Part shown: positions 5,345 to 48,900 of the stretch, piece after piece
Layout: the number at the start of each line of letters is the position of its first letter
Position numbering within the stretch: position 1 is the stretch's first letter
Assembly: GCA_001938485.1 (NCBI GenBank)
Contig: MQRK01221729.1
Span: 1 to 50,260, forward strand
Length of the DNA: 50,260 nt
Origin: Girardia tigrina
Taxonomy: Eukaryota
Reading direction: 5' to 3'
The notes under the pieces: model-generated
The model's database searches: none
What the model saw: only the letters and a program-made list of their open reading frames with translations
Told to the model about the DNA's origin: nothing
Made by a program: the position numbers and the translations under genes

Positions 5345-7818
5345 GTTTATTTTCAAAACACTGTTTAATTGATAATATTCAAACAAAATATTTATCAAAA
5401 AAGCATATATTAAATATTTCAAATAATTAACATATCTAATATCCAACACTCCGACCAGATTCGTCCTCAGAAGAATCTGAATCCACGATGTAATCATTTA
5501 GATAAGACGGTCTTCTTCTTTCTCTACTAGGCCTACTGTTCAATGATTGTTCCTCTTGTGTTTGATTGTCTGGTAGTGATGTAGTTTCCTCCATATTCAT
5601 ATAGTATGACTTGGAATTTTCAACCAAGTCAGGCTGTCTAGGTCGAATGTCTGCGATATGTCTTGGACCGCAAAATCCATTGCAATTTACTAGATATTTC
5701 CTTTGATCTATTCTTTTCACGACAACTCCCTTGACCCATTGCTGTGTACATGGTGTATTGTTTTCCGGTGTTATCCACACTAATTGATTCTCAACATAAT
5801 CTGGATTTCCACAAAATGGTTCCTTTTCACTAATTCCAATTATGTCTAACCCTATGGGCAAATAGCTATACAGCGCCGAGCTTGGTGTTTCTTTTCCTTC
5901 AGATGGCGTGTTATTATACCACCATAAGGCTTCCAATATGCTGATATTTGATCTGGACGCAATTATTTTGATTGTTCTATGATTCCTTTCTATTATTCCG
6001 TTGCAGTTAGGTCGATTGATGGTACGATACATGACTCGAACGTTTCACTTTTCCATTAGCTTGTTGAATTCTACCGAATGAAATGTGGTATAATTATCGA
6101 TAATTAGTTCCTTGGGAGACCCAAGTTCACAAAACAAACTTGAAAATTCTGAGACAATTGACTTGACGTCTTCAGCCTTAATTAATTTCCATATCGCAAA
6201 GTGAGGAGGACGACAATCGATTACACTTAAAAATTTTTGTTGATTGTACTTTGTAACATCCGCACCAAGTCTTGTCCAGTTTTCGTTGACGCTCAGCCTA
6301 CCGGTTTTCCATTTTACGGGTGCCGGATCGATGGATTGACATTTTCGACATCTTGAAATCAGATCCTTGATATCCGCGTTTGGCACACCTATTCCTTGCT
6401 TCGCACATAGATATCGCATTCTGTTTGCGCCTAAATGACACTTATCATGAAGTTGTTGCAGCTTGAGTAGATCGTCCGTAACCGTTGGATATTAGATATT
6501 TTAATTATTTGAAATATTTAATATATGCTTTTTTGATACTAACAAGAGGCGCATCCGATGCAGTACAACTCAAGCTACTATCTATCCCTTTAATTTCTTC
6601 TTCACCGAACTCAATAACACCCTTATTAATTCTCACACCGCCCAATTTATCTATGACATCCATACCTATTAGGATCCCTAAACCATATGGCAAATGTTCC
6701 ATGACCGAACATTCCACCCTAATGATCCTGCGATTTATATTCAGCCGCACTTCACCCGAACCCACTCTAACACCCTTTCCATTCGCAAAAACTATACTTT
6801 CTCCGTCAAAAAACAACATACAATCACTAACTAACCCTTTTAAAACAACCGTTTTTGAACAACCCGAATCAAGCTGACCTGTCATTTGCGGTGACGATCA
6901 TCGTCGGCAACACCTGCAACTGTGAAGGGAGAGAGCCGGCGCCTACAAACTCCCATGTTTGTTTCCAGACCGACAGTATTTTGCGATATGATCCGGTTTC
7001 TGACATTTGTAGCAAATTGATTGTCTGTTTGATTGCCACTGAGAACCCTTATGATTATAACTTTCCTTCGATTTGGTGTCTCTCTCACGATAAACATATA
7101 GTCCTTTCTGAAGATTTGCTCTGGGTTTATCGAGTTCTCCCTGACCTCCGGAACTCCCTGTTTCTTTGTTGTTTCCGTGTTGTATTGCCGCCATTGAACC
7201 CTGTAATAAACACCTTTTAATCCCCAAATACCTGCGGCTATACTCGATCATTTCGGCCAGCGGTTGGTCACCGGTCACTGCGTTCCAAATCCACCTGTAA
7301 CTTGAAAGGCAGTCCAGCCACGAAGGCAGCTTTTGTTAGATCGTCGACCTTTGTTGCTAACATCTTCACCTGAGACGCATATTCATCGATACTCTCGCCC
7401 TCGTGATACTGTAAACTTATCAATTTACGGTACACAGAACCTCTAGTCAGGTCGAACGAATTGTTTAATATCTTGAAGAACCGATCGCAGCTGCTTTGCG
7501 TCTTCTCGTCCGATTCCATGTAGATGTTCAGTGCAACCCCCGATAGTAAAAAAGGGAGATACGGGGCTGCATCAGTAATCTTCTGGTTTTTCATGACAAT
7601 TTCAAATTTCTTCTGCCAAATCTCGAAGCTGTTGCTTCCATCGAATTTTTTCAAAAACTCCAAAACGATTTTCATATCATTCATTATGCCCGGATAGCTT
7701 GTAACACACGAAAAGTTTATTTTCAAAACACTGTTTAATTGATAATATTCAAACAAAATATTTATCAAAAAAGCATATATTAAATATTTCAAATAATTAA
7801 AATATCTAATATCCAACA
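5345..7818 (-). mobile_element. Gypsy-type LTR retrotransposon with short (119-bp) LTRs; gag, protease and integrase present, RT/RNase H deleted
   Basis: LTRs at 7700-7818 (TG...CA) and 5345-5448 (distal end truncated). CCHC knuckle CYKCQKPDHIAKYC, protease LDSGCS, integrase HLG...CRKCQ and NGIIERNHRTIK. Confidence 0.9.
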
Positions 7819-8099
7819 GTCCTACCTTTGAAACATTCATATTATTCAGTAGAATAATAAAATTTGATTTCCTTTAAAAACATTGTCAATATAATTTGGC
7901 TAACAAAAGTTAAAAATCTTTATATTTCTGTTACATGTTAAATTTATTTATTAAATGAAATATTTAACATGAAAAATTATGGATAATTATTTGTTTAAAT
8001 AATATCTATTTAAAAGTATTTTTTGTTGAAAAATAAATTTTTGTCGATTTGTTATTCATTGTTACAATTTTATTAAAAAGTCAACATAAAAAATTTAAA

Positions 8100-8700: not shown

Positions 8701-11700
8701 TTTTTTTGATCAAATATTCATATAATCATTTATTGTCATAAAAAAGTTTGGAAAAATTGTGACAAAATTTCAAGTTGAAATATGTAAAGATATCCTGGGA
8801 TATACATTAGATGCTCAAAGCTATGGTCGCTGTATAGAGCATCTTTGACTTGTGTTATTGTTATTGTTATCAACCGGCTACTGGTGCATATGGCGTGACT
8901 GTGTCGGTAAGATTTGTCGTCACCGCATTTGACATTAGTGGGTTATATTGACCGTATTGTGTTTATGCCATGTCGAGTTGGAATATTTGATATTCGACAC
9001 TATGCACATTTTGGTTAAATTTTTTATAGTTGTACCTGAAAGATGTAATTTGTTTTTAAGCAGGTTGTCATTATCGGTGGGCCAAGATCCTAAACAGCCG
9101 ACAACAATTGCTCCTAATATTACAGTCCATCCTTTATGAACCGCCTTTGCTTCAGTTATCAGGCTTTTATATTTCGTTTTGTTGTTATCTCTGGCATCTT
9201 TAAGTGCTTTGACAGTGTCACAAGGGGTTTTTATATCTATAAGCCAGAGTTCTTTGGTTCCATGGTTATAAACTTGTAAATCTACCCGGCTTCCCGACAC
9301 AGACCAATCACACTCTCGATTCATGATCATTTTTAAAATTGGTTTCTCTGCAAGTAAAGCATCTGTGACTATTTCTGCGATTGCATTATGTCTCGCCTGT
9401 ATCAGAGTGCTATTGGGTTTACACCAACATAGAACATGGATCTGTGTTTCTATATCTTGACCACATGCCCTACACATCGATTGTTGTCTTGGTTTTTTCG
9501 GCTTATAATTTGTTGGTAAACTATTTGTCCTTGCGCTGTGTAAAAAGCGCCATTCCTCGATGGATAGTGACTCATTGTATAATACTTTGGAGCTGAAGTT
9601 GGGTTCTGCCAATGAGATGGCTGACATTCCAGCCATCCTTTGTTTGCTCCATTTGTCAAATTTCATTTTGTTATAGATTCTGTGCAAGTGGAAAGTTATA
9701 CTGTCTATTGAGTGTTCATTTAGTATCATGGAATCATTGGATATGTGAACTTTTAAACAAATACCTAGCTCGTTAGTGACAAACTGAATTTGTAACCCAA
9801 TGCCTTTCAGGTATTTGATTGAATTCCGAATCTTGGTCCACCAAGATTTAAATCCATTCTCTTTGTCACCTGTGTTGATCCAGTTTAGGCAATCAGAGAG
9901 TGTCCATTCTTCTTTAGTACCGTAATATCTGTCTAGGGTGTTGAATAAATTGATAAAGGTGAGATGACGCGATGTTTCGTCTGAGCACACCATGTTCCTG
10001 TACGCTTGAATTATAGATTGTATTGCGTATTCATCTCTGGCAGAGACTAAACTTAAACCACCTTTTTTCTTGTTAGCATAAATGTAATCATTGGATGAAT
10101 TTGGGACCGTTCCACAAATCTTCTTCAAGTAACGACGAATTTCCACGTCAAGGCCCCTTTAAAAGATAGACTTCGTGGTTTCGTGGTGGCCATAATCCGT
10201 AAGTTCCCTGTTTGGTATATTATAGTTTCGAAAATAGAAGGTGAATCGTGAGTGTATAAAGATTCTATACGCTTCTATTTTCTGNNNNNNNNNNNNNNNN
10301 NNNNNNNNNNNNNNNNNNNNNNNNNNNNNNNNNNNNNNNNNNNNNNCGTTCAGGAGTGAATTTTGTCTTTCTGGTAAAGTCTACTCCGAGATAACGGTAA
10401 CCTTCTTCATCCGTTACTATAGGTATTGGTATGTTATTAATATGGATTGATTCATTCATAAGAGGGGTTGATAAATATCCACATTTGGCTGGGTTAAACT
10501 TCATAGAAGTCCATTCAACCATGTCACATGCAGATGAAACCATGGCTTGTACACAAGAGTTGCTGGTTGCAACTAGTGCAATATCATCTGCATATGCCAG
10601 ACAAGTAATTTTACCAGCCTCGGTGTCGATACCAAAAGCATCATTATCTTGTAATGCAGCCAAAATCGGATCAATTCCAACGCTGAACAGCAGCATTGAA
10701 AGAGGACATCCTTGTCTAACCCCCCTCCTTATGGATATGTCTTCAGTCGTACAATCATTGCAGGTAGATGTTGATGAACAATCCGAGTACAGATTTGCAA
10801 TGAGAGAGCAGGAGAATGAATCTAGACCTTTTCTTCTGAGAACTTCTAATATATGATTAATTGGAATGCTGCCAAATGCATCAGTTAGATCGAGGAATGC
10901 AATATGAAGATGTTCATATTCCTCCAGTAAAATTCTCATGATGTTATTGTGTTCAGCGCACCCGTCCGATGGTCCGACGCCTTTTTGGAACTTTGAAATT
11001 AAATTGTTCTTTACCAGCCATTGTTCCAGTTGAGTACATAGGTAAGATGTGAACAACTTGGCAATGCATTCCATCAGGGCTATTGGTCTCCATGATCCTA
11101 TATCTTTGTAATTTCCTGACTTACCTGGTTTAGGGATCATTACCGTTAGGAATTTCTTCCAACTGGGTGGAATAACTCCTGTATCAATGATTTTATTAAA
11201 TAATGTGGCCAGAAATTGACAACCCGGGTCGCAATAGTCAATATCTGCATAGCCAATGTTTGATATACCGGGACTAGTATTTTGGTGTTCTTGAGTATGT
11301 TGGCAATCTCTTCTGGAGTGACATGCTAAAATTGAAATTTTGGGCCAGGTTTGATGTTTGGCGCATTGCTCCAGTCTGTTTCAGGTGGATAGTCGCTTTT
11401 TGATTTGGCGTAATTTGTAAGAGATTCCAAAGATAGCTCTCCATCAACAGTAGTGTCACTTANNNNNNNNNNNNNNNNNNNNNNNNNNNNNNNNNNNNNN
11501 NNNNNNNNNNNNNNNNNNNNNNNNNNNNNNNNNNNNNNNNNNNNNNNNNNNNNNNNNNNNNNNNNNNNNNNNNNNNNNNNNNNNNNNNNNNNNNNNNNNN
11601 NNNNNNNNNNNNNNNNNNNNNNNNNNNNNNNNNNNNNNNNNNNNNNNCACTATTATCTCTGAAATTTTTTTGTAACGCAATTCTCTGTTATTCTTTTCTT

Positions 11701-14323
11701 TAATAGTTTTTTCTTGTCGTCTAATTTTCTTTTGAACTTTCCTTTTAGTGATGTTGTAAATTATTTCTCGTACATCATTTTGGGGGGAGGGGTTGTTGTG
11801 ATACAATTGCCATATAGAGTTGGCAATCCAGTATCCGCTCTCTGCAAATTTTTGTGAAGTTGGCAAATCATTGGATAGTTTCAAGATCCAACCTTCGCCA
11901 CCTAATCGAAAGAAGGAGAGAAGATTAGCATTAATGCTGTTGATTGCCAGTTCTTGTTCCAGTGTTAGGGATTCCATTACATTATAAACGATGGTTNNNN
12001 NNNNNNNNNNNNNNNNNNNNNNNNNNNNNNNNNNNNNNNNNNNNNNNNNNNNNNNNNNNNNNNNNNNNNTATCTATATTTATAAATATTTTATATGATAT
12101 ATTACTTTTTATATATGATTCATTATTTTTGGCAATTTGATAAGTGGCTTGTGTAGATAAGGTAAGCCACTTATCATTAGGCGGTAATATATAAATAAGA
12201 TTCGACATTTAGAAATATTCAAATCGTCGGAGGTTCATAGTTGTTTCCATTTTGGTATTATATATATTAATTTTCTGTTGACTTATTTTTTTAGAATAAA
12301 ATTTTGTTTTATATATCTCAGTGACTGAAATGTCCCCACCCCCAGTTCTTCCCGCAGGACGATCCGATACATGAGGGCGCAGCTGATGACAGCGTTTTCG
12401 GATGTTTTCTATATTTATTTCAAAGAGGGGGTTGATTTTTTCGTTTATTATATTTTCTATAAAGCCGCAGACAAAAGGACCACAGTCATTATTGTTTGCC
12501 TGTTGCTCACATTCGGGGAACTTCAGTGGAAGCCGCACTCTATAAGGTTTATTTTTTCTATCTGTGGCGACTTCGTTTATGGCAGTAATGAGTGGCGCAA
12601 CTAGAGCTGTGACTGTCTTCTCACACGGCAAGTTACTCAGTGAGTTATATATATACGCGTTTTCCGCGTGCAGCACAGTGCAAGCCAATGTGTGTTGTTG
12701 TAATTGATTGGAACTACACATAAATTTCTTTTTTTGTATTAAAGCCAGTAAAAACCGAATTTAAATCGTCTTCTCCATGAAACAACCTAGTTGCAACAAA
12801 GTCTGGCAGAACCAGAGACTTTTTTGGGATGCTGATGTGTTCCAAAAAGGTATTTATATCATCGTTGTCGAACCAATATGACGGATCTGGTGGCCTATCT
12901 GCATCTTCAACAACAGTCAAAGTTTTAGGGCCATCCCGTCAATTTTTTTTGTTAGTTTTTTTTGCATATTTTTTATTTTTTGGAGCCACAAATCGCGAAG
13001 ACACGCTGGAAGCATCCGAGAATAAGTCATTATCACTGTCATTAGCAATGTTTTCTTTTGTTAGGTCGACCGCTGACCCGGTAGATNNNNNNNNNNNNNN
13101 NNNNNNNNNNNNNNNNNNNNNNNNNNNNNNNNNNNNNNNNNNNNNNNNNNNNNNNNNNNNNNNNNNNNNNNNNNNNNNNNNNNNNNNNNNNNNNNNNNNN
13201 NNNNNNNNNNNNNNNNNNNNNNNNNNNNNNNNNNNNNNNCATTTACCAGCAACAGTCGGCAAAACCGATCTGGTTGCAGCAACAGTCGGCAGAACCGATC
13301 TGGTTGCATCATTAGACATAGAGTCATCATTTTTTTTATATCATCATTGCTATTATTATTTTTTTTTATATTGACAGTTTTTGTGATAGTGTTCTCAGAG
13401 GCAACTTTAATGTCATTCATCGAAAATAGACTTTTGACAATTGCATAATTTGATAAAGTGATTTTATGTTCTTTGACAATATTTTGTAACCTAATCTTTA
13501 ACTTAACATCAGCATCTCTAAGTCTAAATGTGCTATCTAGATTGTTTAGTAATTTTAAGGTTTTATATATTTTGTTTTTGGCTTCTTCGTGATTTTCTTT
13601 TTTTAGAGAGTCATGAAGTTCCAACGAAATCTCGTCACACAGTAGCCTGACTGCAATGCCATAGCCATTGCATTGTTTGTGACATCTGTCACATATAGAT
13701 TCTAAGATATACTCTAATTTCTCTGGAGAGAAGACAGTCGGAGCTCTATGTGTTATGAGCGCTTCTTTCCATGAGGGTGGTGCTGGGATTCCTAATTCAA
13801 AAGCCTGTCTATTTAGTTTGTCCAAGAACCAGCGTGGTATGTTGTTTACTCTTTCTATCCCCTCCGCAACATAGTGAATATTTTTTATAAAGGTTGATAC
13901 AATTTTATGTCTATGAATCTTTTCTAGAGTTTTAATTGCGGAATCGGTATTTACTATTTTTTTAGCCGTTAGAGTTTTCTATATTTTTAGTATTATTTTG
14001 TATAGTTATACGCAGCTCGTTAGAGACCGCACGGTCCACCCCAGTTATTTCGGGTTCTACCGAGCGAGGAAAATTTTTTTCCATTTTTTTAGAATTATTG
14101 TTATTATTTGATGATTTAAACAGATCTGAAAATGTTTGCTTTTTTTTATTATTTTTAATTTTTTCAATATTGTTAATTTCATGATTATTAATCGATTTTT
14201 GGTTTTTCCAACCGCTACTGTTATAAAATTTTTTTTTATTTTTATTAGTAGCTGTTGTCCAGCCATCGTTATCGTTAAAAATAATATTTTCTATGTAATT
14301 GTTAAATAGAATTTCAAATATTC
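8701..14323 (-). mobile_element. NeSL-clade-like non-LTR retrotransposon: Ulp1/C48 protease, RT, CCHC zinc finger and restriction-like endonuclease; frameshifted and gapped
   Basis: Ulp1 motifs WFDNDDINTFL and QQANNNDCGPFVCGF. RT motifs WRPIAL, GVRQGCPLS, LAYADD. CRACGQDIETQIHVLCWC, RHNAI and RVDL...LIDIK (RLE). The 3' end has AATAAA and an A7 tract at 8701-8707. The 5' end is not defined. Confidence 0.88.
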
Positions 14324-18640: not shown

Positions 18641-19678
18641 CATTTTGGAGAGGAAGATGATTTGTTTGTCTTCAACCAAACCCATATATTGGTGCACTAT
18701 GAAGGCGGCATTTCAAGAAGGCTGACAGACATCGATCACCGCATCATTCGAAAATGCTACACGAATTTTGTGGAGCGATGCAATCTGTGTTTGCAGAAAA
18801 ATGATGAACATTTTGAACAATTATTGTAAAACCTTTTTCTTTTCATGTCTTCAAGTTGTACTGCGTAAAAAACCATGTCGTAATACATTTATATCATATT
18901 CAAAAAGTTTTACATTACATTGCAGTATAGTTCCATATCTTGAGACAACGACTTATGAATCGCACGGTATATATCAAACATCATTACAATTTCCCTCACA
19001 ACTACGAAAACATTAAGTCCCATTTGAATATGTTACCTGTTGGATATAATATTTATTTCTAATTGTTAAACCACTTCCTTCTTCACAATCTGCAATATTA
19101 GAAACTGCTAGTTATTAATAAAATAATTTGAACTTTTCAAATATTTTATATATTTTCATAAATAGATATTTGTAAATTAAACGTGCGGGTTGACCTGACG
19201 GTCATATAGTTGAATTGTAAAGTACAACTTTTATGATTAAATTTTATTGAACAATGATTTTGTACTGTCATAATATATACATAATTAAATGACTTTATAA
19301 CAATGGAAATGCATTATTACAACATTTTGTTGCTGTGAGAATAATTAAACTTATTAATATCTTTTTTCTCAGACATTACCATACAAAACAAAAAATAATC
19401 ATTTTAAATGAATTTGTATAAAACATTTTCTTATCCCTTTAAAAAAAAGACTTCTATTATCTTTTTGATAAATTGCTTTCATTATTTTAAAAACACTATT
19501 AAATGAAAAGCAACGAAAAACTTAAAATTTATGGTTTACTCAAAAGTCCATTTAAAGTTAAAATTTCAAACAAATTAAGTGTTCGTAAAGATTTGACAAC
19601 AATAATCAAAATTTACTTTCGATTAGTCATCAGTAATAATTGAAAGGTGATAATAATAACCCGAAAAAGAAGCAAATA

Positions 19679-20912
19679 TTAGGTTGCCCTAAAAGTTCCC
19701 GGTCAATAATGAAAATACAATTTTTTTCAAATTTCTTTTTGGCATTATTTATTTGATATTGATATACATATCGATTTGTTTATAGCATTATATGAACTAC
19801 GAGATTACAAAGATTGACAACCGTGTATTGCTGCGTCACTATTGGAAGAAGGGCTTGACAACATGAGGTACTGCCAAGGCTATTTGCAAAGTTTAAGGTA
19901 CACAAACGGTTGGAAAAAGTACGGCAATTGATTGGTTCAAGCGTTTCAATAAAGGTAACTTTGACTTGAATGACAGTTCTCGTCCTGGACGACCAACAAA
20001 ATTGAATAACAATGACTTGCAAGCAGAGTTGGACATGAAGCTTTCATCAAGCACTCGCGATTTGGTATTTAAGCTTGGAGTTGGCAAGTCAACCATACAT
20101 TGGTACTTGAATCAGCTCGACTTTGTGCACAAGAAACCGCATCAAGATCCATAATAACTCACCAAAGCACAGGCCGATAAAAAAGTCCAAATTTGCCGAC
20201 AAGTTGTCGGCGAAAACTACTACAGAATTCACTAGATGACCGCTTTTGGAAACGAATTATGACGTCGGACGAGAAGTGGGTCGACTTGGTCAACTACAAC
20301 CGTGCCATACCATGAGTTCCACCGGGTCAACCAACGCCGTCAGTTCCAAAACAAGATCGATTTGGCTTGAAAATCATGTTGTGCGTCTGGTGGAACTTTG
20401 AGAGAGTTGTGCACTTTGAGTTTGTTCAGAACGGCCAGGCCATCAATGAAGAGCTCTATTGTCAACAGCTGTACCGTGTCTACTAGACGGTCAAGTAGAA
20501 GTACCCTGCCTTAATCAACCAAAAACGTGCACTGCGTCAGAAAGACAATGCCAAGCCGCATACCGTCAAAAGGACCACGGGCAGGTTCCAAGAGTTGGAT
20601 GGAGTCGAAATACTGCCGCATCCTGCTTGCAACCCTGATTACGCTCTATCTGTCTTTCGATCCACGCAACACTTCTTGAAAGGCCGCTGATTCGAAGCAT
20701 TTGATGAAGTTGAACAAGCATGTCAAGAGTTCTTCAATTCGAAACAGCCGGAATGGTACTTTGACAAGATCCGAAAGCTTGTAGACCGTTGGCAGAAAGT
20801 AGTCGAAAACGGTGGACTGTACTTTGAAGATTAATTGTTATTTATTTAAAATAAATTCTTTCACAAAAATTTTACTTTTCATTCTTGACCGGGAACTTTT
20901 AGGAGTATCTTA
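19679..20912 (+). mobile_element. Mariner element, full length, pseudogenized transposase
   Basis: TIR TTAGGTTGCCCTAAAAGTTCCCGGTCAA with an imperfect partner, TA flanks; RPGRP, TSDEKWV, DNAKPH, RWQKVV motifs. Confidence 0.92.
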
Positions 20913-21195
20913 TATTGCAAACATCAGCGATAAACAATTCAAATAATTAAATAGAAAACATCAAATCTTTGACAAACTTTAAAACATGACTGAATTGAGT
21001 TTGTCTTTTGGGTAAGAAGAAGACTTCTTGAATAGAATTAAAATAACGAAAATATATAACGACTGATTGCGAAAATTGTTAATAACCTTAAATCTCTATA
21101 ACTCCAACACAAATTAACAAATTAAAAAAAACCTAATCAAGTAGGCTGTTGTTTGAATAAATCAAAATAAAATTCATTTTAGTATTCATTTTTAA

Positions 21196-22191
21196 ATGTC
21201 ATTTTTCATGAATATGTCGTCAGAAGCAGGTCGTCGCGAATTCAATTTTCGTTTATTTCATGAAAATCCACAATCAGGTCGAAAAACAATTGCCAAAAAG
21301 GCACTATTTTGTCAAAAAACGGTTTCTAACGTTATTAAAAACTTCAATGAGAACTTGAAGGGTTCTGGAAGAAGAAAGGGTTTTTCGTGTACACAGAATG
21401 TGAAGAAAGTAAAGGCTCTGTTAGAGAGAAATCCTCGTCTATCAAATCGAAAACTGGCGGTAAAGGCAAATTGTAGCGAGAAAACAGTTCGGAAAATTAA
21501 ACAGTCTGTGGATTTAAAAACGTATAAAGTTCAAAAAGTACCAGACCGGAACGCTAAGAAGAACGTAAAGGCGCAGCAGCGAGCCAGAAAGTTGACATCT
21601 GGTTTTCTTGCGAAGAAAAAATGTTGCATTATGGATGATGAGACTAATGTGGTCTGCGAGTTTTACCAGCTACCCGGACAAGAATTTTACTCTGCCACTA
21701 AGAGAGGAGGAGTTTAAGAAAAATTTAGAAGCAAGAAAAAATCTAAGTTTTCCAAAAATTTCTTGTTTGGCAGGCTATTTGTGGATGTTGGCAAGCTATT
21801 TGTGGTACGAAGACAATAATGTCGATTTGGTGCAAAGCGAGGCAAACCAACCACATTGTCCAGAGCTTCACCAAATCGAAAGATATTTGGCACTGGTACA
21901 AAGGCAATTAAAGATGACAAACAAGAGGGCACAGACAATTGCAGATTTTCGGAACAAGTGGAAAAATGCAGCAAATAACGTGACAGAAACTACAATTGCA
22001 AGTCTAATGGCAAGAATTCCGGAAAAGCTCGCAGAATTTATTAAAAAAAATAAATAATCTTTCTTAGCTTACTAAAATTATTTTGAATTAAACACGTTTT
22101 TCAAAACAGTCGGTATTTTTTCAATCAAAAATATGGTTTTGAAGTTTTTGAGGGTTTTAATGGTAGTAATATTTTTTGCACTCAGTCCTTA
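21196..22191 (+). mobile_element. Tc1/mariner-superfamily transposase remnant with a candidate 3' TIR
   Basis: GSGR, HTH, MDDET, PHCPELHQIERY motifs; internal deletion; 5' TIR not found. Confidence 0.75.
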
Positions 22192-22195
22192 TATA

Positions 22196-23591
22196 TTAGG
22201 TTGGTCGAAAAATAATGGCAGTTTTTGGGCTTTATACTTTGTTTATCTACTTTGATATGTATATAAGTTTAAATGCATTAGTGTTAGATATTATTTGAAA
22301 TCTTATACCTAGCTGTATATTCGTATATCCATTATTAACATATTTCTGTTATTTTTAGAATATTTACGGTGCTAAATTAATAATGGAAAAAATTAAAATT
22401 CGAGGAATTTTCTTGTACGAATTTAAACTGGGTCGTAAAGCAACAGAAACGACTCGCAATATCAATAAAGCGTTTGGCAAGGGAACAGCTTCTGAGCGCA
22501 CAGTGCAACAAAGGTTCCGAAAATTTTCTGATGGAGATGAAAACCTTGAAGAAGAAGAAGGTCGTGGTCGTCCAGTTGCTGTGAACAACGACAATTTGAG
22601 GACAATGGTGGAAACAGATACCGTACAACAATCAGAGAACTTGCAGATGGGTTGGGCATTAGTCATTCAACAGTCCTGGATCATTTAAAACAACTTGGAA
22701 AAATCAAGAAACTTGATAAATGGGTTCTACATGATTTGAATGAAAATCAAAAGAACCGACGCTATGAAATTTGTTCTGCCAATCATCTTCGCAATAAAAA
22801 CGATCCATTTCTTGATCGTATTGTTACCTGTGATGATAAATGGATCCTGTATGATAACCGACGTCGATCTGCACAGTGGTTGGACAAAAATGAAGTACCG
22901 AAACACTTTCCAAAACCGAAACCGTAAGGTTATGGTGACAGTTTGGTGGTGTGATGCTGGAATCATCTACTATAGTTTCTTGAATCCAGGTGAAACAATC
23001 ACAGCGGAGAGGTACTGTCATGAAATTGATGAAATGCATANNNNNNNNNNNNNNNNNNNNNNNNNNNNNNNNNNNNNNNNNNNNNNNNNNCTATAGTTTC
23101 TTGAATCCAGGTGAAACAATCACAGCGGAGAGGTACTGTCATGAAATTGATGAAATGCATAAAAAATTGAAAATCCTTTGTCCGGGATTGGTCAATCGAA
23201 AAAGTCCCACCTTTCTTCATGATAACGCTAAACCTCATATTTCAAAAGTGACTCTTCAAAAGCTTAAGGATTTGGGCTATATAACCCTGCTTCATCCACC
23301 ATGTTCACCAGACCTCTCGCCAACGGACCTCTACTTTTTCAGGCATTTGTACAACTTCCTACGTGAAAACATTTTCAAAAACCAAAATGATGCTCAAAAT
23401 GCCTTCCAAGAATTCGTCGCTTCGAGAACCGATGCATGTTATGCTGATGGAATAAAACAACTTGTTTCTCGTTGGCAAAAATGTATTGATGCCAACGGTT
23501 CATACTTTGATTAATAAACTTTTGTTTCTGTGAATTTGCACGTCTTTGAAGTTTGTGTCCCAAAACCGCCATTATTTTTCGACCAACCTAA
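22196..23591 (+). mobile_element. Mariner element (Hsmar1/Mos1-like), frameshifted
   Basis: 30-bp TIR TTAGGTTGGTCGAAAAATAATGGC(A/G)GTTTT, TA TSD; WVLHDL, TCDDKW, HDNAKPH, SPDLSPTD, RWQKCIDANGSYFD. Confidence 0.95.
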
Positions 23592-23667
23592 TATAGAATT
23601 GACTGAGTGTATATCAGACAATAGACGAAAAATCTGTTCTTCTTATAAACCGGGTAGTGTTAAATTA

Positions 23668-33682: not shown

Positions 33683-35988
33683 CAAACGAAGAGAAACCAC
33701 TTGATTATTTTGGAGTTTTAGTATGTTTGATTCACATGATTTCTATTTATTTCTATTTATTTCTATTTTCATTTTAAAGTTTCCAGAAACAAATGAAAGC
33801 TCATTTAGATGTGTATGTTATTTTGATAAATATTTATTAATTGATTAAATAATGAAAATTATTTTTCATATATTCATAATTAAGTGATAATATGTGAGCA
33901 AAACTTTTAAAATCTAATTTTGTTTAATAAGAAAGTTTATATCTACGTTGAAGATGATTTCGATATTGAAAAAAATGAAACAAAAAAATAAAAGACATCG
34001 CATAAAGTTGTACTAACTTTCAGGAAAGGAAGGCGCTAACTGCTAAGACTAAAGAGAAAAACATTAAATAATATGACGACAAAACATTCCAAAATATACA
34101 AAAGGAATGTGAATGTAATTGGTTGTCCTAAAATTTCCCGGTCAATAATGAAAATACAATTTTTTTTCAAATTTCTTTTTGGCATTATTTATTTGATATT
34201 GATATATCGATTTGTTTATAGCATTATATGGATTACGTGATTACAAAGATTGAAAACCGTGTGTTGCTGCGTCACTATTGAAAGAAAGGCTTGACAACAC
34301 TAGATGCTGCCAAGTCAATTTGCAGAGCTGAAGATACACAAACGGTCGGAAAAAAGTACGGCAATTGATTGGTTCAAGCGTTTCAATGAAGGCACTTTTG
34401 ACTTGAATGACAGTCCTCGTTCTGGACGACCAACAAAATTGGATAACGAGGACTTGTAAGCAGAGTTGGACATGAAGCCTTCGTCAAGCACTCGCGATTT
34501 GGTATTTAAGCTTAGAGTTGGAAAGTAAACCATACATTGACACTTGAAGCAGCTCGACTTTGTGCACAAGAAACCGCGTCAAGATCAGCACGAACTCACC
34601 AAAGGTGTTGAAGATTTATTACTAAACATACCTAAACAAACAGGCCGATAAAAGAGTCCAAATTTACCGACAACTATTACAAAATTCACGAGATGACAAC
34701 TTTTGAAAACGAATTGTGACGTCGGACGAGAAGTGGGTCTACTTGGTCAACCACAACCGAAACAAACCATCGGTTCCACCGGGTCAACCAATGCCGTCAG
34801 TTCCAAAACAAGATCGATTTGGCTTGAAAATCATGTTGTGCGTCTGGTGGAACTTTGAGAGAGTCGTGTACTTTGAGTTTGTTCAGAACGGCCAGGCCAT
34901 CAATGCAGAACTCTATTGTCAACAGCTGGACCGTGTCTACGAGAAGCTCAAGAAGAAGTACCCTGTCTTAATCAACCAAAAATGTGCACTGCTTCAGCAA
35001 GACAATGCCAAGCCGCATACCGCCAAAAAGATCACGGGCAGGTTCCAAGAGTTGGATTGAGTTGAAATCCTGTCGCATCCTCCTTCAGATTATTTTTATA
35101 GATAAAATGTTATGATTTTCTACCATCTAAAGTATTCACTTCATAAACATTTTTTGTTAGAAATATATGAAATTTTAAATTAATTTTTCAAAATTTTTAT
35201 GGCTCATTTATTTATTTATTTTTGCAGTTTGCAAATCAGTAAGTATAAATAATTTATTTTAATGTTATACGTTTTTCGCTCATAACAATTTCAAATGTGA
35301 AATAAAATTTAATAAAACACATTTTAACAAAAAATCTTTTAAGTATATATTTTCTACAGATATCTCAAAATGTGTCAAAAGTTTCTGGATTCCTATGTCC
35401 AAATAAATGTCTTTAGTATTCTCAATACTCAGTCTTTATTACATAACGTGGAGAAAATATAGTTTTTCGTTTTCAAATTTTATGAGGAGTTCGTTAAAAT
35501 CTTCAACTCACCGAATAATTTATAATTCTTTTAATTTAAAATTTTAACAAAATTAAAGAATTATATAACACGAAAAAAAATAAAAATTAAAAAATTAAAG
35601 GGTTTGAAATCTAAAAAATCCTACATTAAATAAAGTCGATATATTTTAATAGAGTAATAATCAGTAAAATTTTTTTAAAATAAGAATTTAAAAATAAATA
35701 ATAAACAAAATAAAATTTATTATGTAAATTTGTAATAAGTTACTACTACGAAATTATTTTTAAGAAACTAAAATTAGGTTAAATTGTTTTACAAAATAAT
35801 TTGAAAGAAATTAGATTTTTGTAATTTTAATAATAAAATGTCTGATTAAATAAGCATTTCGAAAAATGTTATAGAATATAATAAATTAAATTGATAAAAA
35901 TCATATTGATGTTTTTTTAATATTATGTAACCTCTAATCATTTTCTTTTAGATATGGATCAATTTTAGACTCTTCCGATGATAACTTA
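33683..35988 (+). CDS. Putative micro-exon chain: 33683-33720, 33780-33812, 35102-35131, 35228-35238, 35360-35380, 35952-35988
   Basis: All are AG/GT-bounded and splice in phase without stops: (T)NEEKPLDYFGVL-FPETNESSFRC-IKCYDFLPSK-FANQ-YLKMCQK-YGSILDSSDDNL. Confidence 0.4.
34118..35088 (+). mobile_element. Mariner copy of the 19679 family, 3'-truncated
   Basis: 5' TIR and high similarity to about 19679-20625. Confidence 0.9.
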
Positions 35989-36149
35989 GTAATTCTAAAG
36001 TTTTATTATAATAAATAAAATTCTATTTAACTAACGTCCGAATTTGAGTTGGCATGTTAAAATTTTCCTTTTTTTAAATTTCTCCCACAAAACTCTAAAA
36101 GTTAAAACAAATTGTAAATAAATTTGGAAAAAATGGAACATCGTTGACA

Positions 36150-36628
36150 TTAAAATTCAAAAACCTATTGAAATTGTTTATTAAATTCGACGTATTAATC
36201 GTCAGCTTTAAAATAACTGATTAAAAAAAAGAAATATACTTAAATACTGCGGCAATGATTATGTAACCAATACGTCATCAATAAATCATTTAAAAACCCT
36301 CAATAAAGTTGTCAAGAGTGCATTTTGTACGTTAATTTTAGAATAAAAAGATCTTTTATATATCGTTTCACATGTCACTCTCTCCAAATAATTCTTAAAT
36401 TGAGTGCATAGAATTTTAAAGTTATGGATGCTTATGTCCCCTTTTTAATATTTACTATACCAAGCAATATTACTTCCATTTTCTTTACGAATGTGTTCCT
36501 AGATTCTTTTATAGAAATGACGCGAAGTCTCTCCAATGTTGCATAACACCCATTATATGTATATTGGTAAATGAGATCGGAAAACAATCCTAACGGTGTT
36601 GATGATTTATTACTAAACATACCTAATC
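36150..36628 (-). mobile_element. Penelope-like element 3' fragment (GIY-YIG) with a degenerate hammerhead at about 36179-36205
   Basis: LIYQYT…GETSRHFYKRI*EHIRK; CTGACGA…GAATTTAATA. Confidence 0.7.
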
Positions 36629-37372
36629 AAACAGGCCGATAAAAGAGTCCAAATTTACCGACAACTATTACAAAATTCACGAGATGACAACTTTTGAAAA
36701 CGAATTGTGACGTCGGATGAGAAGTGAGTCTACTTGGTCAACCACAACCGAGACAAACCATCGGTTCCACCGGATCAACCAACGCCTTCAGTTCCAAAAC
36801 AAGATCGATTTGGCTTGAAAATCATGTTGTGCGTCTGGTGGAACTTTGAGAGAGTCGTGCACTTTGAGTTTGTTCAGAACGGCCAGGCCATTAATGCAGA
36901 GCTCTATTGTCATCAGCTGTATCGTATCTACGAGAAGCTCAAGAAGAAGTACTCTGCCTTAATCAACCGAAAACGTGCACTGCTTCAGCAAGACAATGCC
37001 AAGCCGCATACCGCCAAAAAGATCACGTGCAGGTTCCAAGAGTTGGATTGAGTCAAAATCCTGCTGCATCCTGCTTGCAACTCTGATTGCACGCCATCCG
37101 ACTATAGCCTCTTCCGATCCATGCAACACTTCGTGAAAGGCTGCGATTTGAAGCATTCGATAAAGTTGAACAAGCATGTCAAGAGTTCTTCAATTTGAAG
37201 TAGCCGGAATGGTACTTTGACAAGATCCGAAAGCTTGCAGACCGTTGGCAGAAAGTAGTCGGAAACGAACGATTGTACATTGAAGATTAATTGTTATTTA
37301 TTTAAAATAAATCCTTGCACAAAAATTGTATTTTTCATTTTCATCTGACTGGGAACTTTTAGGACAACCTAA
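36629..37372 (+). mobile_element. Mariner copy of the 19679 family, 5'-truncated, with 3' TIR
   Basis: …GGGAACTTTTAGGACAACCTAA; near-duplicate of 34635-35088. Confidence 0.9.
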
Positions 37373-38139
37373 TTTATTAATATATTCTAGCGATAATCCA
37401 TAAATTTAGCAGATAAATCAGTTTTACAACAGTGGCTTATCAAGACGGAAAGACCAAACGGAAGATACTATTAGAACAAAGCGTCACATAAAATATGAAT
37501 ATTTGTGCATAAATTAAAGGAAAATAAAAGAAACTTAAAATAATCACATGTTATCCCAACATAATCATTAAAAAATTTGAAAACTACTTTAACAGACTAA
37601 AAAAATTTTTTTACCTGAATTATAAATTAGTAATCACTTTGTTAAAAAGTTAGACAATTTAAACGTTAAAAATATTTTTGTAAATATTTTTTTTACAATT
37701 TTATTTGAAATTTGTACAATTTTACTCATTTTCTAATTTTAATTTTTTGAATTATATTGAAATATGGGTTGAAAATTTACATGAGTTGAAATAGGTCATG
37801 GGTTAAAACACCCTACAACAATTTCTCACATCTAGACGTGGGCACGTTTTAAAATTTTCTAAACGTTTAAACTGTCTTCGTTTACCAAATTAAACGTTTA
37901 GAAAACGTTTAAATGATCTCTAACTTCATAGAAAAACATTGCAACTATGCTTTATTTTTTTCGAAGCCCATTCATTTCGACAATTTCATGTATGACAATT
38001 TTTATTCATAAAATGTTTACAGGGTATTCCTTAAAACAATTTAGTTCGAACATTTGATACAAAAATAATGGTATAGTTGCAATAATCATATCGTTTTTAC
38101 ATATATGTTACATTCAATGAATGTGGTTTTCAATTCAAG

Positions 38140-42938: not shown

Positions 42939-45900
42939 CAGTGGCATAGCAACTGTTATTGGCGCCCGGGGCGGTCCTTAGATTAGCCGCTTGTTGATCA
43001 TCCATTATCCGGAACACTCAATGACTGTATATGCTAAAAATTAAATAGAGTACTGTAATTGTTAGTCTTAAACTCCTTACTTTCATTTCATATTCTTCTT
43101 GTAATACTCCTGTTCTTATAATAAAGTTTAAGTAGTAACGAAGTCATTTCAAAATTTACAATTTTAATTACAACTTACAAGTGAACATTTCACGCTTTCG
43201 TTTCTGCAAATTTAGTGATAACAATATCAAAATTCAGTTCAACAGCAAGCTCTCTCTCAATAAAAAGGACTATCAAGTCATTAAGCCTTGATTGGCTCAT
43301 TGTAGATCGGAAATTGTTTTTTATTAACTTTGGATTTGAAAACGAGCGTTCGCATCTGGCATCGTTAATAATACGGGTAAGAAGGATGCGCAGCAAGATC
43401 ACAATATTAGGAACGGAGTCCCCAATTTTATATCTCTGTATGAATCTCAAAAGTTCTAAAGGTCGGTAGATTTCGTCATTTCCTGAAGCTTTGACAAAAT
43501 ACTGAAGTCTTCTTCTTTCTTCTAAGAATTTCTCTTTCTCCTTTTCGTCAAGTTGATAATCTTAATTATCATCAAAAAGATTCGATTGTGCAATGACAGC
43601 ATACTTGTTTGCAAAATCATGAACTTGTTGAAATCTGGAATATATTTCCTCAATCAACCTGCCTACAGCAAACAGTATTCCCTGTCTCAACTGAGCATTA
43701 AATGTCATCGCTACATCAGTCGATCCCTTGTCATTCATTCTTTTCTTTTTGCAAATTCGACGCTCCAGCTTATCACCATTTTAAAGCAGATATTCTTGGA
43801 TTCGTTCATTGCACTGTCTATCATCTTCTACTTATTTTGAAAAAATATAATCTCTCAGTGCTATGAGCTTAACAGAACTTTGATACAGATCCAGCCCTTT
43901 TGTTTGAAGATACTTCTGTGCAGCATTGACTTCTGGTAAAACAGATTTCCAAATGCTCAGAAACGATAGAATTGGAAACGACAGTACTGAGGTTAGAATT
44001 TGTTATAGTCTTAAATAAAAGATTAATAAGATGGATTATAAATATTTATTAACAAAAAAATGTTTAAATAGTAATATTTAAACAACATATAAATTCCTAT
44101 TTTTTAAATAATTTCTATTTTTTTATTCATTTCTTAATAATTATCATAAATGATAATATAACATCCCCCTTTGGAAATCAACGATATTTTTGTGCTGGAT
44201 TCCTGGTGCTTCTAATCGGGTATCTCGTCTTTCTGACAACTGATTATTTTCTGAATATAAATAACGTACTTGATACATAATCTATTGGTGCGTTTAATTC
44301 CCCGTTGTACTTTTTTAACTGATTATAATTTCTTCTCATTACTTTCTGCGATGTTTTATCTTGAAGAATATAAGTATAATTATTTAAAATCTTTTGTATT
44401 GTATATGGTCCACTGTATATTGGTTTACCCAATCTTCTCTCTCCGTTTTCTTTAACTTTGTCTCCGATACTTAATTGCTTATACAATGTGTTTCGATTAT
44501 ATATATCAGCTGAGTAACCACAACCTGTTTTCATTTTGTCTATTATCAATTTGTTTAGTTTTTTCTTGTTCTCGTTTAAGCCACATCACATAATCACTTA
44601 TTGATCATGTTGTACAATCATCGTTGGTTGTGGTTAAGACTATTGGCTTTCTACCATAAATAATTTCAAAAGGATTAAGGCCTGTTGTCTTTTGATTTGA
44701 ACATCGTAGTCCAAACTCAACCACTGTTAAAATGTCAGACCAGTCGCCTGTCCTGTTCGTCATCATACACGATCCCATTAACTCCTTTGCAGTTCGAAAA
44801 AGTCTTTCAACTAAACCATTTGATTGGGGGTAATAAGGAGAAGAGTGTGACTGTGTTATGTTCATACCTAAACAAAATCGTCGAAATTCAGTTGACGTAA
44901 AATACGAGGCATTCTTTAATTCTCTGGAGTACTAAGCTTAATCGTTCATTATGCTCTTTTATTGTTCTTCCGAAAATCAGAACATCGTCTAAATATATTA
45001 GACACTTACTCCAATTCTCTCTTTACAGAAATATATTCATCATTTTCTGGAAGGTGGCAGGAGCAGAGCATAGACCAAAAGGCATTCTTGTAAATTCCAA
45101 CTGTCCATGCTTTGTTGTAAAGGCCGCTTTTTTCATATCATCAGACTTAATAGGGATTTGATAATAACCACTAGACAAATCTAGCGTTGAGAAGTATTTG
45201 GCCTCTCCAATGGCATCAAATATTTTTTCACTTACTGGAATAGGATAAATTGGGCGATCTGTTTTAGCATTTAAACCTCTATAATCCACACATAATCTTA
45301 TATCTTCGTTTTTCTTTTCTTACAATTACGAGTGGAAAATTCCAAGGAGAATTACTCTGCCTTATTATTCCAGCATGTTCTAGCTCCTTTACTTTAGAAT
45401 TTACCACTTCCTCCAAACCAATTGGTATTCTTCTAGGCTTAAAAGCTATAGGTTTAGCTTCTCCTGTATCAATTGTATGCTCTATAACATTGGTAAGAGC
45501 CACATTTAACGAGTATTTGCTAAAAATATCTATATTTTTCTTTATGTTATGCATTGTTTCATTTTTTACACTTTCTGCAACGTCATCCATATTTTTCTCA
45601 ATAACAGAACATATATCTGATAATCTAGATATTTCTCTATGTTTTGAAATCTCGAATAAACTGCATATACCTCTTTTAGTATTTTGAATTTTGTCATCTC
45701 TCCATTCTTCAGTGTATCCAAGTACTGAACCCGCATGTAGCGTTTTAGAATCTCCACCTGGCATATATAGCCGGACCCAGATGGAGCCATCTTTCAGCGA
45801 TACAATAGAGTTTCCAATTAATAAATTTTTATCCGCCATTTTCGCTTTGTCCCAGTAAAAATCATATCTATTCTGAACCTTGATAACTTCTGATTATTTT

Positions 45901-48900
45901 CATCTATTACTACTCCTCTAACCAGATATTTTCGAGTTCCACATAACTGAACATTATCACATAAAATCACACGCATCATTAAGCAATTTTGAGTTCCTTC
46001 AGTACCCCTCTCCGCATCCGAACTCTGAAATACGGTAGGGATTAGTTTAAAGTTGTTGCAGCTTTAGTAGCTAAAACAAATGGGACAATTATCTTATCTA
46101 TTTCAATAGCATCAATATCTGGTCTAATTATTATGCCACACTTTTTCATGCTTCGTAATCCGATAATCATATCTGGAGATATATCTGGCATAATATCAAA
46201 TACATGCTTGGTTAAAATTGGACCAACATTTACCGATAATTTTACCTTGCCTTTACAACTAACTACCTGACCATTAGCACATTTTACCTTTGTTTCTGAT
46301 GGATATATTTTTATATTTTCTTGCTGAGATAGTTGTTTGTAAAGTTTTCACTTACAACAGTCAAATCTGCACCTGTATTAAACATAACATTAATCTTACT
46401 ATTTCGAACTGAACACTGAACTATCGGCTTATTTGCTAACGACTGATTTTTTAATAGCGCTTCTTTTTAAAATGGACGTTTTGTTTCGTTGTTGTACCAT
46501 TAATGTAAGATACATATTGGTCGATTAGATCCGGTTTTTTCAGGGGTTTAGTTTTCGCCATTGAGTTAATTTGCCTTTCATTATCTCTACTTACTTCTGA
46601 AATCGAATATGAATTTTGGCATTCCGATAACTCCATTTATTGTAACAACTTAACAAATTTAAGGTTTGGGCAATTAGTTTTCTTGTGGTTACCACCACAT
46701 TCGTAGCAAATTATAGCTTTGCAAAAACGTTTGATGTGTCCGACTTTATTACATCTAAAACATTTACGTTCGGCGCTCTTCATATTATCGGACAATCGAT
46801 TATTTTTAAGTTTAAATATTTCGTCCTTCAGAAATTTTATTTCTGCCTTTAGTTTTTGGTTCTCCTGAAGTAATTCCGCAATCGATACGCATTTTATACA
46901 ATTCGTAGTTATTTTCGTCACTATTGTCGCAGTCGTCTTCTTTCACCATCCCGAGAGCTTCGAATAGTGTTGTCGGTTTGAGAATTTTAAAGACTTTATA
47001 GATCTGTTTGTCCAGTAGTCCGTGCTGGAAAATTTTAACTATGGAGTCCTCTGATTTGATATTTGGCTTGAACGCTTCCAATTTTATTCTTTTTGAAAAA
47101 TCTAGAAATGTTTCTTTTTGTTCTTACCTCATTTGCAAGATTGGTAACGATTCACCGACTTTAGATCTTTGAATGTCGAATTTTTCGATCAATTTAGAAG
47201 CCAGTGTTTGCGTATTACAACATTTCCAATATGATCCGGAATCGCATTGAATTTCTGCAATGAGATCTTTGTCATAATACGAAGAAAACGCCTCCATTTT
47301 CGTATTTTCGTCTAATTTCGCGTCTTCGAATAATGTTAAAAATTCTTTAACATTATTGACGTGTTCCGCAATCAATTTTTCCTTCAGATGAATTTTTTCG
47401 AAGATAAACAATTTTTCTTCTTTTTTCTTGAATATGATTTCTTCTAAAAACTTCTGCGCAGTTGCATTTGTTTGTGACGCTATGTTATAGTCTTAAATAA
47501 AAGATTAATAAGATGGATTATAAATATTTATTAACAAAAAAACAATGTTTAAATAGTAATATTTAAACAACATATAAATTCCTATTTTTTAATAATTTCT
47601 ATTTTTTATTCCTTTTTTAATAATTATCATAAATGATAATATAACAAAGGCGCATAAAGATGTATCTGATCTTGTAGTCATATTTTCTCCTTCTTCGGGT
47701 AGCTTCTCCAGAGCAGTCACGATTTGGGATCATTTGTTCATCATAACATTTACAGCATCTGCTCGACTGCTTATCTAATTTCCACGACCCACTTGATACT
47801 TTGACCATTCTCCTGAATCAAGACATTCCAGAGATGCGTAGATGCCAAAACAAAAGAGAACAATTATTCAAATGTGCCAAAACATGTGACAGAGTGAACC
47901 ACAGTAGAAACTGCATGTACACAAGCCAAATTCAGGGAATCATTTGAGCATGGCATAAATAGAACTTTCAAATTGATTTCGGAGATGCGCTTCTGGACAC
48001 TCGATCGATGAGCAGCCATAACAACAGTGTTGTCGTATACCTGGTCACTGCAATCATCAATGTAAATCTCATGGTTCTCCAGTTGTCTCAACTCCTGGAA
48101 ACAAAAAGAAAGTGACAATGTTCTTTCCCAGCTTAAGTTTTACAATATTTTCACGGAGCACAGGGTTATACTTGGCCAACAAATGAACCAATTCATAAAT
48201 ATTTCCTCTATTTTTATGGTCTCCATTTTCGTGGATGTCTTTCCGGTGGCCCCTTAGTACCAGATTTTACTTGGAGAGAAATCTAATTATTTCTAGTAAT
48301 CTAGCCGGAATTTCTTGCCACTTCTTAGTCTTCTTCTTAATTACTTCTTCCTCTGCTTTGTTAATTGCCTTTCCTTCAGCGAACCGTGTCTTTAGCTTCT
48401 TCCAGTTCAGGAATGTCTGAGCATGCGATGTGCAAATTTCGTGTTCATGCATTTTAGGATTTAATTTCCACCAGTTCTTGAAGCCTTTCTCAACAGATAA
48501 ACCAGACAGTCAAACTGAAAACAGTCTACAGCCAAAACAGAACGGGGCCTCCTTTGAAGGAAAATACACAATCCATGTTCTCATACTTTTCTGTCCAGTT
48601 CACAGATAAAAAAAATCCATTTTTGGTTAGCTTCTTAGTGTAACTTTTTTTCGTTCTTGGTTGCGGTACTTCTTTGAATTCTCAATCGAAGTGCTGCACT
48701 GCAACATATCCTGCGGAACAAGCATAGGCATATTTCATGGTCAATTTTAATAGGTCGAAGACCAATTAAAAAAATGTCAGTAAAATTAGTTGCAATGTTT
48801 GTTTTCAGAGTGATTAGTTGTTACCTTTCCCATGCTTCAATTCCAAGCTCACAATCTTCTGCATCCATTACTTTTTCCGACGTATCGGCGTTTTCCGTGC

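Follow-up and report, generated by a model that had tools for sequence, protein, structure and literature searches.

A putative primer-binding site complementary to the 5' ends of tRNAs in an unplaced lineage of animal LTR retrotransposons

An LTR retrotransposon of Girardia tigrina carries, directly beside its 5' LTR, the exact complement of nt 1-12 of tRNA-Lys(UUU), and comparisons of related copies indicate that this feature marks a whole lineage of elements beyond the single copy first noticed, in which tRNA-Phe and occasionally tRNA-Lys(CUU) are matched as well. The observation is real and lineage-wide, and apparently undescribed; from the sequence evidence we infer, with a probability of about 0.83, that reverse transcription in these elements is primed by a 5' piece of a tRNA comprising nt 1-12, by whatever route that piece is made. 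If so, it would represent a fourth primer type, employed throughout a lineage that numbers thousands of copies in a single genome.

The window element and its LTR boundary

The element lies in a window of 50,260 nt, the whole stretch of DNA that was analysed, and reads on the minus strand as 5' LTR, 12-mer, three bases, gag, protease, an inverted LTR piece, integrase, purine tract and 3' LTR (Table 1). Its 119-nt TG...CA LTRs, polypurine tract and gag-pol, together with the 5-bp duplications seen in the family, are those of an LTR retrotransposon; undeleted copies are about 3.87 kb long, and the window copy is without the RT and RNase H region that takes up about 1.4 kb in longer copies. The plus strand at 7688-7699 reads GCCCGGATAGCT, which occurs once in the window, and the gag ATG (7684) lies 3 nt downstream of the 12-mer on the minus strand. 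The original prediction had taken the 12-mer to be the complement of tRNA-Lys(UUU) nt 1-12, and four tRNA-Lys(UUU) genes of the same genome do start with exactly the 12 bases that the site complements. Pairing is delimited at both ends: tRNA nt 13 does not pair with the last base of the LTR, and at the other end pairing stops at tRNA nt 1, beyond which the next base is variable (A18, C9, G3 and T3 among 33 elements). An AT-rich hairpin of about 17 bp is predicted near the 5' end of the LTR (7763-7812), and the inverted 55-nt insert spans the same stretch.

Table 1. Features of the element and its surroundings (positions in the window)
Feature	Position	Strand	Remarks
5' LTR, 119 nt, TGT...ACA	7700..7818	-	Other copies (solo and 3' LTRs) and loose contig ends from other runs confirm both ends
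12-mer in the primer-binding position, exactly complementary to tRNA-Lys(UUU) nt 1-12	7688..7699	-	No spacer to the LTR
gag, broken	6882..7684	-	Weak Retrotrans_gag match; CX2CX4HX4C knuckle in second piece
Aspartic protease region, broken	6540..6897	-	Matching frame of copy L098 matches gag-asp_proteas
55-nt inverted LTR piece (LTR nt 2-56)	6484..6538	+	Replaces about 1.4 kb of RT and RNase H of longer copies
Integrase (H2C2 zinc domain and DDE core), broken	5439..6480	-	rve in 28/29 relatives
Short polypurine tract adjoining the 3' LTR	5449..5457	-	One base decayed in the window copy
3' LTR, lacking the 15 nt of its 3' end	5345..5448	-	Window copy without visible target duplication
Solo LTR, 138 nt, sister family with the same 12-mer	7929..8066	+	Duplication matching at 4/5 bases

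The window alone cannot fix the LTR boundary, because its own 3' LTR (5448-5345) is without the last 15 nt. Throughout the family, solo LTRs as well as 3' LTRs terminate in this TTACA, and solo copies are flanked by 5-bp duplications (L037/L041, L055). An LTR pair (at least 90% alike) was found at 28 of the 95 junctions examined; in 22 of these 28 the repeat ends exactly at the 12-mer (two of the 22 being circular or tandem contigs), and 14 of the 22 show a 5-bp duplication. Contigs from other public runs have loose ends at 7699/7700 and 7813-7819, with no different letter at 7688-7699 among the matches listed; the family is also seen, with a small share, in the RNA runs X7 and X9, which shows presence, not expression. 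The solo LTRs, 3' LTRs and 5-bp duplications thus uphold the placement of the 12-mer immediately inside the 5' LTR; the boundary does not lie elsewhere beside a TGG site, and no TGG adjoins it.

Other elements share the window. Another LTR element, likewise decayed, lies on the minus strand at 44001-47627; its RT is of the ordinary Gypsy kind (YLDD) and its RNase H region is deleted. The site after its LTR starts with TAGCG and is probably a decayed TGG site. The stretch 8935-13978, also on the minus strand, encodes a reverse transcriptase of non-LTR type (10268-11380), upstream of which lies a frame for a Ulp1-like protease (12212-12760). Tc1/mariner-like DNA transposons with terminal inverted repeats occupy 19675-20916, 22189-23598 and 34107-37383, and transposase matches lie at 21196-21714 and 22984-23511.

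Conservation of the site and its variation with tRNA 5' ends

The sequence CA followed by the 12-mer has 2183 matches in the G. tigrina genome, as against none for the control, and 30 sampled matches of this Lys type fall into eight different LTR ends, grouped by upstream sequence. The 30 best matches to the junction, a query-biased set that includes duplicates, hold 18 exact 12-mers and 12 with one or two mismatches. When copies were picked by RT alone (20 of 139 matches, taken from longer contigs), the junction was kept in 12 of the 20, with nine exact sites, three with one or two mismatches and no TGG, so that the conservation among copies on which the original prediction depended was found.

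A search of the same genome for tRNA starts of the form GCC-N4-TAGCTCAG returned 28 matches (control, none): 12 of Ile(UAU) type, six of Lys(CUU), four of Lys(UUU), four of a fourth type and two strays. The fourth type can be identified from its sequence as the 5' end of tRNA-Phe(GAA); it was read from one interrupted and three truncated copies, and the 3' part of the interrupted copy, on the same contig, has the GAA anticodon and an acceptor strand complementary to the 5' part. An intact tRNA-Phe gene was not found in the assembly with ARAGORN or Rfam. The interruption (L298:89-1950; G000:C181207) is an insert some 1.8 kb long, on either side of which tRNA nt 16-31 are duplicated (16 nt), and is likely to be an element with tRNA-Phe genes as its target; other tRNA-Phe loci (L299, L300, L207, L208 and L220) have the 5' or the 3' part alone, with similar flanks.

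A second class of sites in the genome (1092 matches; control, 57) corresponds to this tRNA: 82 of the first 100 listed are the exact complement of the genome's own tRNA-Phe 5' end, most of the others show CpG-type decay, and none is of the Phe type dominant in metagenomes. The 29 matches sampled fall into 19 groups of LTR ends, most with a gag-like start close downstream, and seven of 20 longer stretches match the same Pol, some showing LTR pairs with duplications. No large third class was seen among sites with a base other than T at position 6 (72 matches; control, 86) or among sites starting with C (37; control, 89). A tRNA-Ile(UAU) class was weak and was not counted: its four sightings (L271, L293-L295) are duplicates of one insertion, whose site is the complement of tRNA-Ile(UAU) nt 1-12 and differs by two changes from the usual site of its family. 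A 1.59-kb element with 75-nt LTRs, a 5-bp duplication, a Phe-type site and no Pol match (L307, L317) is likely a non-autonomous partner.

The association also holds for relatives picked by Pol protein alone. A Pol profile fetched 71 metagenome loci; 31 have no visible junction (one of them, L193, has a weak gag match without a start), and all 40 visible junctions carry the site, 36 called directly and four found upstream of gag, with TGG in none. These 40 sites represent 33 distinct elements with a median identity of 48%, and 32 of the 33 sites follow CA. Exact matches to a verified tRNA 5' end account for 21 of the 33: ten to human-type tRNA-Phe (from the human Phe(GAA) primer sequence given in part of PMC10505166), nine to the Phe type of the G. 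tigrina genome, one to Lys(UUU) and one to Lys(CUU); the remaining 12 are variant sites from metagenome hosts lacking tRNA sequences for comparison. The leading metagenome Phe type is missing both from the G. tigrina tRNA list and from the first 100 sites of that genome, and so the site follows the host. Among three further loci both visible junctions agree and neither has TGG. As a control, an ordinary Gypsy element (L202) caught by the same Pol scan of viral contigs has a TGG site; a pattern scan of viral contigs gave 120 stretches, none encoding this Pol among the matches listed, which are chance matches.

Several loci depart from the common form. One metagenome element (L180:1400-1422) has a site that starts with C instead of A and may pair with a tRNA having G at position 12, presumably of the elongator Met type. 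Elements of the lineage were also seen in contigs of bacterial MAGs (L341-L343), which are probably animal DNA binned with bacteria; the LTR of L342 ends in AA, not CA. In a tree of the relatives (quick method, 62 rows, loci with fewer than 180 aligned residues left out, deep forks open) the site types are scattered, although we do not conclude from this that the switches were independent. Each site pairs with a tRNA that has A at position 9; G9 of tRNAs is often methylated and is then unable to pair, which may explain this choice.

Variation within the Lys class bears on whether the site is copied from a primer, as progeny sites are in LTR replication. Of the 12 bases, a single one (site position 6) distinguishes Lys(CUU) from Lys(UUU), and 15 of the 28 variants at this position have the Lys(CUU) base, the rest being ten transitions and three other changes, compared with two of 28 for the same change at control position 4; this control is a single T two bases from position 6 with different neighbours, and the denominator is about 1,890 (1891) sites. 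The 15 converted sites represent 13 separate insertions in four families and are mostly nearest to Lys(UUU)-type copies. The excess gives a Fisher p of 3e-4 on raw counts and 6e-4 with duplicates removed at position 6 but not at the control, and a binomial p of 0.007 for 13 versus 2, with duplicates still in the control position; the T>A change is also uneven between the two positions (3 versus 13), and the corresponding control in the Phe class is weak (0/6, p 0.059). Recurrent conversion to Lys(CUU) in scattered copies is what copying of the primer into new elements would be expected to produce.

The putative priming mechanism and its alternatives

A tRNA annealed by its nt 1-12 has no usable 3' end, so that a cut or trimming would be needed at about 12|13. 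The mechanism that we propose starts from the position of the site, its exact complementarity and its switching between Lys(UUU), Phe(GAA) and Lys(CUU). The site is computed to be able to displace the acceptor stem and D-stem of an intact, unmodified tRNA (net -8.4 kcal/mol by cofolding, base modifications ignored). A cut at about 12|13 would then leave a 3'-OH beside the LTR end, at which minus-strand synthesis would begin; the true 3' end of the primer may lie at tRNA nt 10-12. Plus-strand synthesis would copy the primer through to its 5' end, as the population evidence suggests, and would thereby regenerate a site of exactly 12 nt for the second strand transfer, carrying the sequence of the priming tRNA. 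By analogy with Tf1 the nuclease would be the element's RNase H.

That the tRNA anneals intact and is cut after nt 12, most likely by the element's own RNase H, is a tentative choice of route, to which we give a little less than even odds. The RNase H D-E-D-D residues are invariant in 29 of 29 Pol proteins, as expected in any active element. RNase H cleavage leaves a 3'-OH, and the RNase H of Tf1 is said, in the title of Levin 1996 (cited by PMC4600332), to cleave an RNA duplex. A cut after annealing is favoured because it would give the same end for every tRNA, with a 3'-OH, and because of the invariant acidic residues and the Tf1 precedent.

Nearly as likely is that the primer is made by the host, a nuclease cutting a 5' fragment in the D-stem or D-loop that is then packaged, anneals by nt 1-12 and is trimmed if longer; the same estimate, which we would place at rather more than one chance in three, covers a variant in which RNase P acts on the refolded tRNA. 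All the evidence from the sites and from primer copying would fit this equally, the free 12-nt piece binds the site far better (-23.5 kcal/mol) than does the intact tRNA, and host cleavage is the usual account of half-tRNA priming in copia. Fragments of tRNA 5' ends cut in the D-loop or D-stem are described in part of PMC9926655, where 5' halves made by host nucleases are also stated to be able to carry a cyclic phosphate end. The difficulty is that the host would have to provide a 3'-OH at the same nucleotide of several tRNAs in many hosts.

It is improbable that the site binds a tRNA or its 5' fragment for another purpose, such as packaging, dimer linkage, control of the gag start or host silencing, with priming elsewhere. 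The gag ATG is indeed very close (0-22 nt downstream in 41 loci), and conservation and switching alone would fit any pairing function. However, the site adjoins the LTR without a spacer, no visible junction has TGG at the LTR end, the tRNA 3' end forms with the element's 5' region at best a bulged duplex of only about -10 kcal/mol, and a whole copy has no second complementary stretch of at least 10 nt, the maximum to other parts of tRNA-Lys being 9 nt; the repeated Lys(CUU) conversion in scattered copies is, moreover, a signature of templating. A reading of the site as a Pol III box A also fails.

Two further readings, self-priming in the manner of Tf1 and the use of another small RNA's natural 3' end as primer, together have very low odds. 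The primer would be similar in length to that of Tf1 (11 nt), but the original prediction's argument that the LTR holds no complement of the site was borne out: in the 400 nt upstream of each of 224 junctions no complement exceeds 8 nt (a length reached in two cases), and most are of 4-5 nt. Tf1-type self-priming is largely excluded. As to the 3' end of some other RNA, which the original prediction had named as a competing match, each site class corresponds to the 5' end of a different tRNA and the sites change in step with these ends, so that no single other RNA end explains them. A chance match or misplaced boundary, for which the truncated 3' LTR of the window copy leaves room as long as the window is taken alone, is negligible in view of the 2183 matches against none, the boundary evidence and the repetition with two further tRNAs and in 33 distant elements.

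Placement of the lineage and comparison with known systems

The Pol order PR-RT-DUF7047-RH-IN, with a DDE integrase, is the domain order of Ty3/Gypsy elements (Metaviridae). All 29 Pol proteins match DUF7047 and RVT_3, and 28 match rve; the RT motif is YIDD in 23, YVDD in three and YLDD in three. None of the 29 matches the Gypsy/BEL-type RNase H profiles PF17917 and PF17919, both of which the control L202 matches at 1e-34, and in a tree with L202 as the one Gypsy reference the latter falls outside on a very long branch; a profile comparison gave 12% identity. In the Atlas the whole Pol protein leans weakly towards Gypsy/BEL clusters; for the RT-RH part the nearest clusters are unnamed, with Euglenozoa and Mollusca as the commonest taxa, a weak pointer that serves only as a lead to kinship with DIRS/TATE/VIPER. 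In a PDB search a single protein had no match at E 1, and a profile matched retroviral and Ty3 integrases and RTs, too weakly for a placement. Homologues of Pol at about 40% identity to the query are numerous, the named hosts being two crabs (Petrolisthes, Portunus), a barnacle (Amphibalanus), a sea spider (Nymphon) and Argonauta, so that the lineage takes in arthropods and a mollusc. The calcareous sponge Sycon ciliatum has a sister group with a single long Gag-Pol and DUF7047 (proteins P0229-P0288, alignment A2), for which a search for the DNA found nothing. In all, 1718 cluster representatives have scores below 1e-30, some of which may belong outside this lineage.

Known groups were considered in turn. 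Ty1/Copia is ruled out by the integrase, which follows the RT instead of preceding it, and BEL/Pao by PF05380, DUF1759 and DUF5641, which are absent from the 29 proteins and from six longer ones. The lineage has an HINxxEL motif, which we take to resemble that of DIRS; a DIRS-like element defined by its recombinase is ruled out, as rve is present in 28 of 29, the TG...CA LTRs have duplications and no tyrosine recombinase stands in place of the integrase. Troyka and the Kuafuorterviruses are ruled out by the TG...CA ends, the 5-bp duplications and the lack of IADD, VADD or LADD. Judged by these protein and terminal features, the lineage is not Troyka, BEL or Copia and stands unplaced in or beside Metaviridae. 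Rather doubtful is the larger proposal of a fourth LTR priming mode, self-priming in trans by the element's RNase H, that would define an unnamed animal-wide lineage with a DIRS-like RT-RNase H and a DDE integrase as its own superfamily. Repbase reports or the supplements of PMC6238403, PMC8556966 and PMC11673190 may hold members under another name.

The original prediction did not recognise this priming mode as described. In the texts searched, which lay outside subscription journals, Repbase reports and supplements and included parts of PMC12859917, PMC6238403 and PMC8556966, we found no account of an LTR element whose site complements the 5' end of a tRNA. A text search for two of the 12-mers gave no retrotransposon paper among the matches listed, and we think it unlikely that a prior description exists somewhere. 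Annotation tools that seek TGG or tRNA 3' ends would miss the sites of this lineage, and the 12-mer together with DUF7047 provides a ready diagnostic for an unplaced retroelement lineage. The system further offers a sharp and inexpensive way to find out which nuclease produces internal tRNA primers, a long-open question for copia and Ty5, and it suggests a concrete role that very short tRNA fragments from the 5' end, as a rule thrown out in small-RNA analyses, may play.

Among known systems, Troyka and the Kuafuorterviruses resemble the present lineage as divergent animal LTR elements with Gypsy domain order and mostly aquatic hosts. They are described, in parts of PMC12440569 and PMC11673190, as having CG...CG ends, 3-bp duplications and IADD, VADD or LADD, in contrast to the TG...CA, 5 bp and YIDD, YVDD or YLDD found here. 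The part of PMC12440569 that we consulted has no mention of primer, PBS or tRNA, nor has the text of either the Sailor or the MolGy paper. A 31-nt 5' tRF that binds Gypsy sites, not as a primer, is described in part of PMC11962134.

A plant-wide survey distinguishes, in the part consulted, three primer types: the whole tRNA, a half tRNA cut in the anticodon stem and a self-primer (PMC6317226). With canonical 3'-end priming, as in Ty3/Gypsy elements and retroviruses, the lineage shares the position of the site, the LTR-gag-PR-RT-RH-IN-PPT-LTR layout and probably the copying of the primer into the progeny site, and some canonical elements use the same tRNA-Lys(UUU) species. It differs in pairing with the opposite strand of the acceptor stem, in having no TGG and in needing a cut; the control L202 combines a TGG site with Pfam RT_RNaseH domains that occur in none of the 29 Pol proteins of the lineage.

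The half-tRNA elements, such as Drosophila copia and yeast Ty5 (also plant Osser, Bryco and Bianca, fungal Copia and Helenus), would be alike in priming from a 5' piece of a tRNA with a 3'-OH inside the tRNA; their site also adjoins the LTR, and in these too the tRNA type switches between lineages (PMC6317226, PMC10886601, each in part). Those elements have a site for the anticodon arm, and their tRNA is cut within the anticodon stem, whereas here the pairing is with nt 1-12, in the acceptor 5' strand and the D-stem; no anticodon-arm complement was found, there being no stretch of at least 10 nt besides the nt 1-12 pairing. The whole primer would be paired and the integrase follows the RT, unlike in half-tRNA Copia elements, and the plant survey, in the part consulted, reports half-tRNA priming only in Copia (PMC6317226). 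Half-tRNA priming is marked by a 3'-truncated tRNA shown on particles; for the present lineage the search of public runs gave assembled contigs.

Self-priming is the mode of Tf1 and the sushi elements (Tf1, Tj1, plant Tcn1 and TAR), in which, according to part of PMC4600332, an RNA pairs with the site by its 5' end and cleavage then releases a primer some dozen bases long; the putative mechanism here would resemble this. The donor in that system is the element's own transcript; in the present lineage the LTR holds no complement, and the donor would be a tRNA acting in trans.
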